From Escherichia coli (GTDB lineage Bacteria > Pseudomonadota > Gammaproteobacteria > Enterobacterales > Enterobacteriaceae): a stretch of DNA of 64,000 nucleotides. This document shows positions 37,219-42,726 of the stretch, piece by piece; position 1 is the first letter of the stretch; every line of letters begins with the position of its first letter. The notes below the pieces were generated by a model, which saw only the letters and a list, made by a program, of their open reading frames with translations, was not told where the DNA came from and did no database searches. The stretch is taken from NCBI RefSeq assembly GCF_022846255.1, contig NZ_AP025682.1; one strand, written 5' to 3'. A program made the position numbers and the translations under genes.

Positions 37219-37731
37219 TCAGTCGGTCCAAGTAGTTAATTCAAAGGTTGTCCGGTAGACTCCTGGAACCAATGTCTGGTCTCCGAGGATTTTTGCAGTT
37301 ATTCGACTTGTTGTCCCAACAACAAATGGAGCGAATCCGGCTCCACTACCTACCTTCACCCCATTAGCAAGGTTATCCCCTGCGTAGTTGTGAATCGGTG
37401 CGCCGTATGAACTAAGGTACGCTTTTGCAGTATGACCATCTGGCCCGGTAAAACTGAATGGCGCCTTCAACGGTCCTGGCGAAGTCTCTCCTTGAGGATT
37501 GCGGAGTTTTCCGAATGTTGGTGTTCCCCTGGTTTGAGTCATATCAAGGTGCCCCCAAACCTCACCATCTTTTGCATTTGTAGTCGTTGGCCCAGCGTCG
37601 ACCCAATCTATTGTGAATTCAGCATCTGATTCAACTGTATGAGTGGCTGTTACTGTCACAGCATGGCAAGTTAGCGCCATTGTTATACCTGCAATGACAC
37701 TGCTTGCGATAGCTATTTTCTTTAAATTCAT
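37219..37731 (-). CDS. secreted fimbrial/afimbrial adhesin subunit (AfaE-like, last gene of the chaperone-usher operon)
   Basis: 170-aa ORF with signal peptide MNLKKIAIASSVIAGITMALTCHA; position after afaD-like gene matches the afaE slot; sequence itself not recognised as a known AfaE variant. Confidence 0.5.
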   Translation of the reverse strand: MNLKKIAIASSVIAGITMALTCHAVTVTATHTVESDAEFTIDWVDAGPTTTNAKDGEVWGHLDMTQTRGTPTFGKLRNPQGETSPGPLKAPFSFTGPDGHTAKAYLSSYGAPIHNYAGDNLANGVKVGSGAGFAPFVVGTTSRITAKILGDQTLVPGVYRTTFELTTWTD

Positions 37732-38025
37732 ACCTTATCCTTATACTTGGTTATAATAAATGGCAAAACATATTTCTATAATACTGCTTCACCACAATAA
37801 ACACTGGCCCGCTATTTAAATACCCTGCAGGAAAACACGAATACATTAAGTCCCCCAACAGGACACATATAAATATTTAAATGCTTCCACCAGTGATATT
37901 TTAATGTACAGTCAACTACAACAGTAGCTGCCCGTTCATTAAACTTAACGTTCAATATATTTTCACAGATACTTAGCTACATATGTTCCATAACAGACGT
38001 CCACTTTTTGATGAAAAGGTGGACA

Positions 38026-38071
38026 CTGCATCACCAATACAAGTTTAACTGCATCACCAATACAAGTTTAA
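38026..38071. repeat. perfect tandem duplication of a 23-bp unit (CTGCATCACCAATACAAGTTTAA x2)
   Basis: Seen directly in the AT-rich spacer between the afaD-like and afaE-like genes. Confidence 0.8.
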
Positions 38072-38288
38072 TGGCTACATACGGCACTCAGTTTACACTT
38101 ACATTACATATGCATTTTAACACATCAACTATAACACCTTTATTTAAGTCTGTTGTGGACCATAGAATATGGTAAATTACAACAAGCAAAATAAAGTTAT
38201 ACATGCTTTTATAAAATAACATGCTATTTTAGAGGGCAGCCATTGACAACTGAATAGTTACTTTATTAGCATAAAGAAATTATGAATA

Positions 38289-38708
38289 TTATGAGCATTC
38301 TCCGCTAACTGATAATATATATTCATCAGGCCCAAGCAGCTGATTTCCGTCAATCACAACATCAAATGTATGCTGCTCAGGTATCCCGGTACTGACCATA
38401 CCTTGCCCATCACTTACCGATGGCAACCATCCTGCGCCATCCAACCTAACCCGCATTTCATTATGACTGTCATGTCTACCCAGTATAATATAGTGACCAG
38501 GAATATTTCCCATTTGTCTGCTATTCATCCAGATATGAAAACTTGTATAGGTGCCTCGGCAGATAATCCTTCCTGTTGCCACCTTCGTACCGTCTTTTAA
38601 CTCGCCACTCCTTCCATCACTGGTATTAAGACTCAGTTCAACTGCCTGCGCCAGACTGGATATAACCACCAGTACAATACCACTACATACTATCTGTATT
38701 TTCTTCAT
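38289..38708 (-). CDS. afaD: AfaD/DraD-family invasin-like subunit
   Basis: 139-aa ORF; strings DGTKVATGRIICRGTYTSFHIWMNSRQ, EMRVRLDGAGW and FDVVIDGNQLLGPDEYILSVSGEC match my recollection of AfaD (GAKVATGRIICRE..GFHVWMNERQ.., FDV..DGNQ..PGEY..SV.G.C). Confidence 0.65.
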   Translation of the reverse strand: MKKIQIVCSGIVLVVISSLAQAVELSLNTSDGRSGELKDGTKVATGRIICRGTYTSFHIWMNSRQMGNIPGHYIILGRHDSHNEMRVRLDGAGWLPSVSDGQGMVSTGIPEQHTFDVVIDGNQLLGPDEYILSVSGECS

Positions 38709-41312: not shown

Positions 41313-41479
41313 TATTCACACCTGAGCCACGGTTTCTTTTTATTTACATATGCCGGAGGATATACACACGTATTTGTGCGTTTGCACGCCTATTCACACA
41401 CACTTATTTCACACACGCTCAGTATTCAACCGGGTTAATCAAATAAGCCCGCCGCTGACGTTAATATTTATTCCGGCTT

Positions 41480-42247
41480 TCAGCTTTTTAATTCCGATTC
41501 AAACGGCTTACTCTTTCCGCCGTAATCCGTAATCACTGTCCAGCTGACTTTTCCTGATGCACCAGAAGGAATTTCATATTCGTAAGAGGAGTACGGAGAA
41601 ATATAACGATGCTCCTTAACCTCTTTCCCACCAACGCTCAGCTCTGAAATATTAATATAAAATGGTGTCGGGTTATTCCCTTTCAGTTTATTACCTGATT
41701 TTGTCCACTCCACTTTTCCGCCTGCATCCTCCGGACGCCCTTTAACCGCAGGCGGACGAACAAACAGCTTCACACAACTGCTGACGGAAAGATTTACCTG
41801 CAGGGTTGCCTTGTCAGCTTTCTTTTTATCAGCACCTTTCTCTTCTGCCCATCGGTCATCATGCTTTGGCGGAATGCCTTTCACACAAAGCCACTGCAGA
41901 CTCTCACGGTCCTCAGGAAAAACACCCCCGGTACGGACAATTCGCAAACGGCTCGACTGAAGTGCATCCAGACGGAAAAGCGGCGGCGTCACCACAAAGG
42001 GGGCCGGGTCCTTCTGATTCTCTGCCAGCACCTCTGACTGAACCAGCATCGGATAATCCAGGTCATTCATTACCGTCAGTGAGGCCCCCGATGAATCCAG
42101 GTTGTAAAACACCCTTGTGGCCCCCAGATGCAGGGAAAAAACCTTTGACGTAGTCTTCGTGCTTTCCTGGTTTCCGGCTGCCATTACGCCGGAAGCCGGC
42201 AACCCCGCCAGTATGCCAACGAGCGCTGCAAGATGTCTGATTTTCAT
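41480..42247 (-). CDS. afaB: periplasmic pilus chaperone (PapD-like)
   Basis: 255-aa ORF with signal peptide and conserved chaperone core (PFVVTPPLFRLDALQSSRLRIV); symbol by synteny. Confidence 0.8.
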   Translation of the reverse strand: MKIRHLAALVGILAGLPASGVMAAGNQESTKTTSKVFSLHLGATRVFYNLDSSGASLTVMNDLDYPMLVQSEVLAENQKDPAPFVVTPPLFRLDALQSSRLRIVRTGGVFPEDRESLQWLCVKGIPPKHDDRWAEEKGADKKKADKATLQVNLSVSSCVKLFVRPPAVKGRPEDAGGKVEWTKSGNKLKGNNPTPFYINISELSVGGKEVKEHRYISPYSSYEYEIPSGASGKVSWTVITDYGGKSKPFESELKS

Positions 42248-42324
42248 TATTTTATCCTGAAGGCAAATAAACCTTTTATAAATATGTTAATAGCAACCGC
42301 CCGACAGCTGTCACCAGTATCCCC

Positions 42325-42726
42325 TCAGACCCGCCAGTCACCACCACGCTTTACTGACCGATCACCCTCCTCTTCATGGTTCATTGCCAAACCAGAAACA
42401 TAATAAGGAAGCAGATTATTCACCGTCTGACTGAGGTGCTGAATCCGAACCAGCGCTCCTGATAAATACCCCTGAGAAACACCGTGCTGCTCACAGGCCT
42501 CCCTGCGGGTATATCCCATAACAAGATGCTCCCTGAGCGCATTAATCACTTTCTCACTGTGCATCCCGGATATTTCAATCAATAACCAGAAATGCCTTTC
42601 TGATACTTCCCCGGGCAGCAGAATCCCGGACCGCTCTTTCACCAGATGCAAACAAACCTCCGAATTCATAACCCCGTTTACTCTGACAGGGAAACAAACT
42701 CTCAGCATCAGCGCCGGAATGAACAC
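42325..42726 (-). CDS. afaA: PapB/AfaA-family fimbrial operon transcriptional regulator
   Basis: ORF track 133 aa; core LLPGEVSERHFWLLIEISGMHSEKVINALREHLVMGYTRREACEQHGVSQGYLSGALVRIQHL resembles PapB; true start probably an internal Met. Confidence 0.7.
   Translation of the reverse strand: MFIPALMLRVCFPVRVNGVMNSEVCLHLVKERSGILLPGEVSERHFWLLIEISGMHSEKVINALREHLVMGYTRREACEQHGVSQGYLSGALVRIQHLSQTVNNLLPYYVSGLAMNHEEEGDRSVKRGGDWRV

Follow-up and report, generated by a model that had tools for sequence, protein, structure and literature searches.

The afa-8 (bma) gene cluster of pathogenic Escherichia coli encodes a chaperone-usher adhesin of the AfaE-VIII/BmaE type, and comprises four transcription units: afaABCD; afaE, which has a promoter and a terminator of its own; afaF; and afaR, the gene of an antisense small RNA (sRNA) (PMC3664800). 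A long afaD-afaE spacer carrying AfaR, together with the separate promoter and terminator of afaE, has been reported for afa-8 only, and the AfaD-VIII invasin recognises beta-1 integrin (PMC3664800). The genomic island that carries the cluster was first found at the tRNA-Phe gene pheU, and more often at pheV (PMC6174562; PMC7545054). Here, we analysed a 64,000-nt stretch of E. coli DNA (contig NZ_AP025682.1), hereafter the window, in which an initial annotation made from the sequence had placed an Afa/Dr-type adhesin operon at positions 37219-42726. This locus is almost certainly an intact copy of the known afa-8 cluster, lying at the integrase-proximal end of a pheU genomic island. As such it is a cluster that has already been described, and it is ordinary except for a few small regulatory changes that are specific to its lineage.

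Identity of the chaperone-usher cluster

The segment 37000-43200 aligns to RefSeq afa-8 copies with 99.1% DNA identity over 6201 bp (megablast, best matches). It is present in 40 of 5,426 complete E. coli genomes, 25 of which have a single match that spans at least 80% of the query, and the genes of the matched genomes are annotated as 'M agglutinin-type afimbrial adhesin BmaE/AfaE-8', 'AfaD family invasin', usher, chaperone and 'adhesin biosynthesis transcription regulatory family protein'. The five minus-strand open reading frames (ORFs) proposed initially, for a regulator, a chaperone, an usher, an AfaD-like protein and a secreted 170-aa subunit, were all recovered at the same coordinates in the six-frame ORF list, and all structural and assembly genes are full length. 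The spacer before the adhesin gene, estimated at about 550 bp, measures 557 bp, and the Afa/Dr-type gene order and layout are borne out by the identity to annotated afa-8 clusters and by the DraB-like chaperone. Besides the near-identical whole cluster, the locus has the BmaE typing gene, the antisense AfaR and a position on a tRNA-Phe island beside a P4-type integrase, all of which belong to afa-8, and we found nothing that contradicts this identification. The initial annotation had also mentioned afa-8 as reported from a tRNA-Phe island, with which the pheU context and the integrase found here, as well as published work (PMC6174562, PMC7545054), agree. Two published components went unmentioned in it, namely AfaR in the afaD-afaE spacer and the divergent afaF upstream; beyond its limits, the feature extends only via the afaF remnant (43213-43342) and the regulatory intergenic region. 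The identification matters for annotation only, in that the strain is marked as carrying an adhesin-invasin system associated with extraintestinal pathogenic E. coli (ExPEC) and bovine strains on its pheU island.

The first gene of the operon, afaA-8 (42325-42669, minus strand), encodes a PapB-family transcriptional regulator of 114 aa (Pfam PapB PF03333, E 1.9e-36). It most likely starts at the ATG at 42669 rather than at the GTG at 42726, because the ATG is the RefSeq start in the reference locus (L001) and gives an exact match to a 114-aa protein that is widespread in E. coli (exact-sequence look-up). The interval 37219-42726 drawn initially thus holds for the gene coordinates, with the exception of the regulator start. 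Downstream, afaB-8 (41480-42247, minus strand) encodes a periplasmic chaperone of 255 aa and of the FGL type, which is closest to DraB (PDB 4djm, E 2e-114), well ahead of SafB (3e-71), Caf1M (4e-62), FimC (1e-27) and PapD (1e-14). Its residues Cys121 and Cys158 flank a 36-residue insert, as seen in the sequence and the alignment, which corresponds to the long F1-G1 insert expected of FGL chaperones.

The outer-membrane usher, encoded by afaC-8 (38724-41312, minus strand), has 862 aa and matches the NCBIfam usher families (best E 2.5e-294); an identical usher in another afa-8 locus (L002) carries the Pfam domains PapC_N, Usher and PapC_C. It is 61.5% identical to Agg3C, and 87 plasmid records fall in the 60-80% identity band. 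RefSeq places the usher start at an internal ATG (M27 of the ORF, giving 836 aa), leaving just MAACTLLYTGNTEA ahead of the mature protein. This is too short for a signal peptide, and therefore the 862-aa start of other gene callers looks more plausible.

The next gene, afaD-8 (38289-38708, minus strand), encodes the AfaD-VIII invasin, the fibre tip subunit, a protein of 139 aa that is identical to UniProt Q9XDG7. It matches the solved structures of AfaD (PDB 2ixq) and DraD (2axw), as well as AafB and AggB, with E~3e-28, and Pfam PF05775 is assigned to the identical protein in L002. The 139-aa product is thus an AfaD homologue, as had been proposed, and no other chaperone-usher family fits the products better.

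From established chaperone-usher biology, AfaB would cap and stabilise each subunit in the periplasm by donor-strand complementation, and the next AfaE subunit (mature N-terminus VTVTATHTV) would then displace the chaperone strand with its own N-terminal strand at the AfaC usher. The expected outcome is a thin AfaE polymer, an afimbrial sheath, carrying AfaD. The locus has what is expected of an FGL-chaperone (gamma-3) polyadhesin system, with an FGL-type chaperone and a major subunit whose Ig-like fold is incomplete and which has a donor strand at its N terminus. At the operon level it also belongs to Afa/Dr, by the order of afaF and afaA-afaB-afaC-afaD-afaE, the AfaD-family invasin and the DraB/AfaB-type chaperone, with afaF being only a 43-codon remnant.

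The AfaE-8 adhesin and its alleles

The last gene, afaE-8/bmaE (37219-37731, minus strand), encodes the AfaE-VIII (M-agglutinin-type) afimbrial adhesin, the polymerising major subunit of 170 aa. The protein is an exact match to WP_137493805.1, which is named BmaE/AfaE-8 (exact-sequence look-up), and the gene is 95.7-98.1% identical to 29 RefSeq bmaE genes at the DNA level. A Rho-independent terminator, formed by a GC-rich hairpin and a T tail, is found 22 bp past the afaE stop (37175-37197, minus strand); a terminator 25 bp downstream of afaE has been reported (PMC3664800). The initial annotation matched this subunit to no AfaE variant, and suggested that it may be a divergent adhesin with different receptor specificity. 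AfaE-8 is indeed unlike the AfaE/Dra adhesins that bind decay-accelerating factor (DAF) in sequence, and therefore went unrecognised, but it is the known AfaE-VIII/BmaE, and a new adhesin specificity is unsupported because the exact allele is already catalogued.

Mature AfaE-8 has no cysteine. Sequence searches with the adhesin found no Pfam family, even with the cut-off relaxed to E<=10, no NCBIfam hidden Markov model and no PDB match to DraE/AfaE-III; the sole PDB sequence match, to an antifreeze protein (E 0.02), was treated as chance. AfaE-8 therefore lacks the sequence homology that would place it in the Dr adhesin family (AfaE-I/III, DraE and DaaE; Pfam Adhesin_Dr). Its relatives are few: an exhaustive HMMER search of 1.84 billion representative proteins gave one protein at 61% identity, fragments of afa-8 alleles and two proteins at ~33%, besides three weak hits (E 1e-9 to 3e-4) in which the matched part is a repeat domain of a large surface protein, and a word-indexed search gave only afa-8 alleles and the same 61% relative. 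The 61% relative and one of those at ~33% sit in afa-like operons (chaperone, usher, AfaD-like gene and adhesin) that have no AfaR. In the former (L011, Logan SRR21311680, positions 3690-5145), 73 bp separate afaD from the adhesin gene, and group II intron domains (Rfam RF02001/RF01998) lie directly downstream. A gap of 73 bp agrees with the published proposal of an insertion as the origin of the afa-8 spacer (PMC3664800).

The AlphaFold2 model of AfaE-8, built from a 9-sequence alignment, has a mean predicted local distance difference test score (pLDDT) of 70 and a predicted template modelling score (pTM) of 0.64, in which the core is a beta-sandwich and residues 1-33 are unplaced. Every structural neighbour of the model is a subunit from an FGL-chaperone system, with the following scores: SafD, 8.7; AggB, 8.2; CS6 CssA/B, 7.4-7.5; SefD, 7.4; MyfA, 6.7; Caf1, 6.4; DraE, 6.4; and AggA, 5.4. 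Because of these neighbours, the model points to AfaE-8 as a polyadhesin subunit of the FGL superfamily with an Ig-like fold, whose membership of the Dr adhesin family proper is not demonstrable. It is through its assembly and regulatory genes, and not through its adhesin, that afa-8 counts as Afa/Dr. The receptor of the M agglutinin (BmaE) is presumably glycophorin A(M), and AfaE-VIII is not known to bind DAF.

The afaE gene of the window is a rarer allele, whose product differs from that of the commonest RefSeq allele at 8 aa, among them residues 131-134 (GAGFA vs GSGND). Compared with L001 it has 10 nonsynonymous and 0 synonymous changes, with L009 17 and 2, and with L010 ~22 and 0 (binomial p = 0.002). 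Between alleles, afaD differs by 1-2 synonymous changes and no nonsynonymous ones, and afaA-D as a whole by 6 nonsynonymous and 6 synonymous ones. The variable AfaE residues recur at 64, 73-77, 88-112, 125, 131-134 and 141-149. This nonsynonymous excess, calculated from four alleles only and without recombination control, suggests diversifying selection on the AfaE-8 adhesin, and resembles the positive selection reported for Dr adhesins (as cited in PMC8764528).

The L010 locus (E. coli IBS28, NZ_CP049979.1, positions 1969-7013) is a mosaic cluster, in which afaD, AfaR and an afaE-8 allele are essentially as elsewhere. Its usher is highly divergent (synonymous divergence, dS, ~0.5), its chaperone gene is annotated with 753 nt vs 768 nt in the window, no PapB-like gene is annotated, and an F17 fimbrial operon adjoins the cluster. 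It seems that afaD, afaR and afaE are mobile together, as one cassette.

AfaR, the putative GATC switch and the state of regulation

The 557-bp spacer between afaD and afaE is not empty, since it contains a full-length match to AfaR (37974-38230, plus strand; Rfam RF02515, 270.5 bits vs a gathering threshold of 100, E 3e-54), a sigma-E-dependent and Hfq-dependent antisense sRNA that represses afaD. A sigma-E promoter drives AfaR, which runs antisense to the 3' untranslated region (UTR) of afaD. It has been validated experimentally that nt 92-130 of AfaR pair with the afaD 5' UTR (-37 to +1) in an Hfq-dependent manner, triggering RNase E cleavage and decay, and most AfaD production is thereby confined to temperatures above 37 °C (PMC3664800). 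The pairing target, which comprises the afaD 5' UTR and ribosome-binding site (-37 to +1; 38708-38745, minus strand), overlaps the 3' end of afaC. The duplex between AfaR nt 92-130 and this target has an energy of -20.7 kcal/mol, vs -9.0 ± 2.8 kcal/mol for shuffled targets, a value reached by 1 of 1000 shuffles, and both pairing segments are identical to those of the reference copy. Folding of whole AfaR with the afaD 5' region was uninformative (-58.6 kcal/mol vs -50 ± 6 for shuffles), and was replaced by this test of the published segments.

AfaR of the window carries a perfect tandem duplication of 23 nt, CTGCATCACCAATACAAGTTTAA x2, with units at 38026-38048 and 38049-38071 (plus strand). 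The duplication is missing in each of the 29 afa-8 copies from RefSeq complete genomes, and the alleles of L009 and L010 have the 234-nt form, while it is present in 7/7 contigs that carry the exact AfaE allele of the window. The segment that is repeated forms the 5' arm, which base-pairs with the 3' arm containing the seed, and with the duplication the predicted cost of opening the seed core would rise from 3.1 to 5.8 kcal/mol.

Only two GATC sites, at 42792 and 42895, occur in the 543 bp between afaA and afaF. From these we infer a putative Pap-type Dam/Lrp phase switch in this intergenic region, with a core (42792-42898, unstranded) formed by the inverted Dam sites ACGATCTTTT / AAAAGATCGT, 103 bp apart. 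Switches of this type are documented for the related daa operon (as cited in PMC8764528), and phase variation of afa-8 has been described only as 'may be controlled' (PMC3664800). The spacing is 103 bp in the window and in L004, L006 and L007, and the canonical 102 bp in the reference L001, because of an extra A in a poly-A run (A6 at ~42846 vs A5 in the reference). The afaA-side promoter region has no substitutions relative to the reference. A sigma-70 promoter scan gave 8 sites vs 10.7 ± 4.0 in shuffles, and was not used to place promoters.

On the other side of the switch, alignment with the intact 62-aa gene of L001 shows that afaF, for a PapI/FaeA-family regulator, is truncated after codon 43 (43213-43342, plus strand). 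The locus thus has no intact PapI-family co-regulator, and the missing 59 nt of afaF were nowhere found in the window. The truncation is due to an IS3-family insertion sequence (IS) of 1258 bp (43343-44600, minus strand), which is 99.4% identical to elements annotated as 'IS3 family transposase' in many E. coli genomes, and whose terminal inverted repeats begin TGTAGTGG. Its flanks are GAA and GTA, and there is therefore no target duplication. The lineage is characterised by WP_137493805.1 and the AfaR duplication; the afaF/IS3 junction and the 103-bp spacing are shared by the window and three (L004, L006 and L007) of the seven contigs with the same AfaE allele, and in the other contigs the regulatory region is uncovered or not comparable. 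A Hammerhead_HH9 match across the afaF/IS junction (26.8 bits vs a gathering threshold of 52) was rejected as chance. In the orfA region of the IS3-family element there is a match to the Rfam 'Hfq-binding RNA' isrC (44410-44532, minus strand; 135 bits, gathering threshold 39), a family that appears to correspond to IS sequence.

Some points weigh against the reading of the locus as an intact afa-8 cluster. Because afaF is truncated, the GATC spacing is off by one and AfaR is altered, expression in this strain could be changed or locked; the adhesin model, with its pLDDT of 70, is just moderately confident, and the receptor specificity of AfaE-8 is not readable from sequence. Taken further, the cluster could be a decaying virulence determinant instead of a working adhesin system, regulatorily crippled in this lineage, with the operon locked (probably phase-OFF) or de-regulated, which we regard as unlikely. 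The cut in afaF with loss of its 3' end and no target-site duplication, the GATC spacing of 103 vs 102 bp, the higher predicted cost of opening the AfaR seed and the IS-rich mosaic nature of the island would all fit such a decay, and there is precedent for IS elements altering expression and phase behaviour when they insert into afa/dr regulatory regions (PMC8764528). However, the five structural and assembly ORFs are full length, the afaA and afaD products are identical to the reference proteins, the afaA-side promoter region is unchanged, and afaE has its own promoter (PMC3664800). In addition, the same configuration recurs in several independent samples, and therefore persists. Trans cross-talk between PapI homologues is established in the Pap family, and PapI homologues of other fimbrial operons in this genome could complement the loss of afaF in trans. 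It is likewise doubtful that the lineage has rewired its expression, with a less accessible AfaR seed and a PapI-independent switch, and that, separately, afaE-8 is under ongoing diversifying selection for receptor or antigenic variation; if this were true, the less accessible seed would give more AfaD invasin at 37 °C. We therefore keep to an intact copy of afa-8, whose regulatory layer is altered in three ways in this lineage, by the IS3-truncated afaF, the 103-bp GATC spacing and the 23-nt AfaR duplication.

The relation to the aggregative adherence fimbriae (AAF) raises another question, namely whether the cluster would be better classed with these (AAF/Agg/Hda) or with Saf-like systems than with Afa/Dr. 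AAF/I-V (agg, aaf, agg3, hda) and Salmonella Saf are likewise FGL-chaperone (gamma-3) polyadhesins with an AfaD-like minor subunit, and the likeness extends to the usher, in its identity to Agg3C, and to the adhesin, whose predicted fold is nearest to SafD and AggB. On the other hand, these systems have other regulators and another major subunit family, and their identity to the cluster is much lower than that of afa-8 or DraB. The chaperone is far nearer to DraB than to SafB, and the cluster is 99% identical to the afa-8 of the literature and of RefSeq. AAF are regulated by a plasmid AraC-type regulator (AggR), whereas PapB/PapI-type regulation is seen here, together with GATC boxes like those of afa, dra and daa. 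We have rejected this classification as very improbable; besides, Afa/Dr and AAF are regarded as a single superfamily (PMC8764528).

Genomic context and comparison with known systems

The island is inserted at a tRNA-Phe (GAA) gene (35386-35461, plus strand; ARAGORN and Rfam tRNA), which is followed by a P4-type tyrosine integrase gene (35659-36924, plus strand; NCBIfam PRK09692, E 1.8e-74) encoding 421 aa from the RefSeq-equivalent ATG. Its homologue in L001 is annotated as a tyrosine recombinase, and the same gene in L002 has the Pfam domains Arm-DNA-bind_3, Phage_int_M and Phage_integrase. The upstream backbone is that of E. coli, aspA-dcuA-cutA-dsbD-dicD(yjdC)-tRNA-Phe, and in an island-free genome cadC comes next; this gene context indicates that the tRNA-Phe gene is the pheU copy. 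Among the loci fetched for comparison, L001 and L002 are at pheV, and the window and L003 at pheU. A distal direct repeat of the tRNA-Phe 3' end was sought in the 64,000-nt window and not found, and therefore the island runs past position 64000.

The rest of the island (44601-64000) is an IS-rich mosaic with IS110-like fragments, an IS4 fragment, an IS630 element (45341-46372) and an IS30 element (53972-55123). It also contains genes for a major facilitator superfamily (MFS) transporter and a Gfo/Idh-type oxidoreductase (47028-49435), and for a dGTP triphosphohydrolase (55965-57218) related to anti-phage dGTPases, which scores 286 bits, under the 400-bit cut-off of the anti-phage model. In other genomes, homologues of this part of the island include annotated ShlB/FhaC and CdiA genes. 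About 30 kb upstream of pheU there are three tandem tRNA-Gly(GCC) genes (5529-5948, minus strand), which would fit the E. coli glyV-glyX-glyY cluster.

The classical Afa/Dr clusters (afa-3, dra and daa), whose Dr adhesins bind DAF and CEACAM, share with the window the layout of afaF and afaA-B-C-D-E, the PapI/PapB-type regulators, the GATC boxes for Dam/Lrp, a DraB-like FGL chaperone and an AfaD/DraD-type invasin. In contrast to these, AfaE-8 has no detectable sequence similarity to the Dr adhesins. In sequence, the regulatory region resembles the pap switch, since there are homologues of both PapB and PapI, and the divergent promoters have two inverted CGATCTTTT boxes between them at a distance of ~102 bp; unlike in pap, the PapI homologue of the window is truncated and the spacing is 103 bp.

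The closest system is afa-8 of E. coli 239KH89/AL862 (the bma M-agglutinin cluster), which has the same genes in the same order, with the 99.1% DNA identity to RefSeq copies given above. The window and the afa-8 references have identical AfaD and AfaA proteins, and share AfaR in the afaD-afaE spacer, a terminator for afaE itself and a P4-type integrase at tRNA-Phe (PMC3664800, PMC6174562). The window differs from the reference in its rarer afaE allele, the 23-nt duplication in AfaR, the 103-bp GATC spacing and the IS3-truncated afaF. The mildly new points are the regulatory changes of the lineage and the sign of selection on afaE, which are of possible interest for work on AfaR and on adhesin evolution; they vary established themes, in that afa regulatory regions are known to be hit by IS elements and Dr adhesins to be under positive selection.

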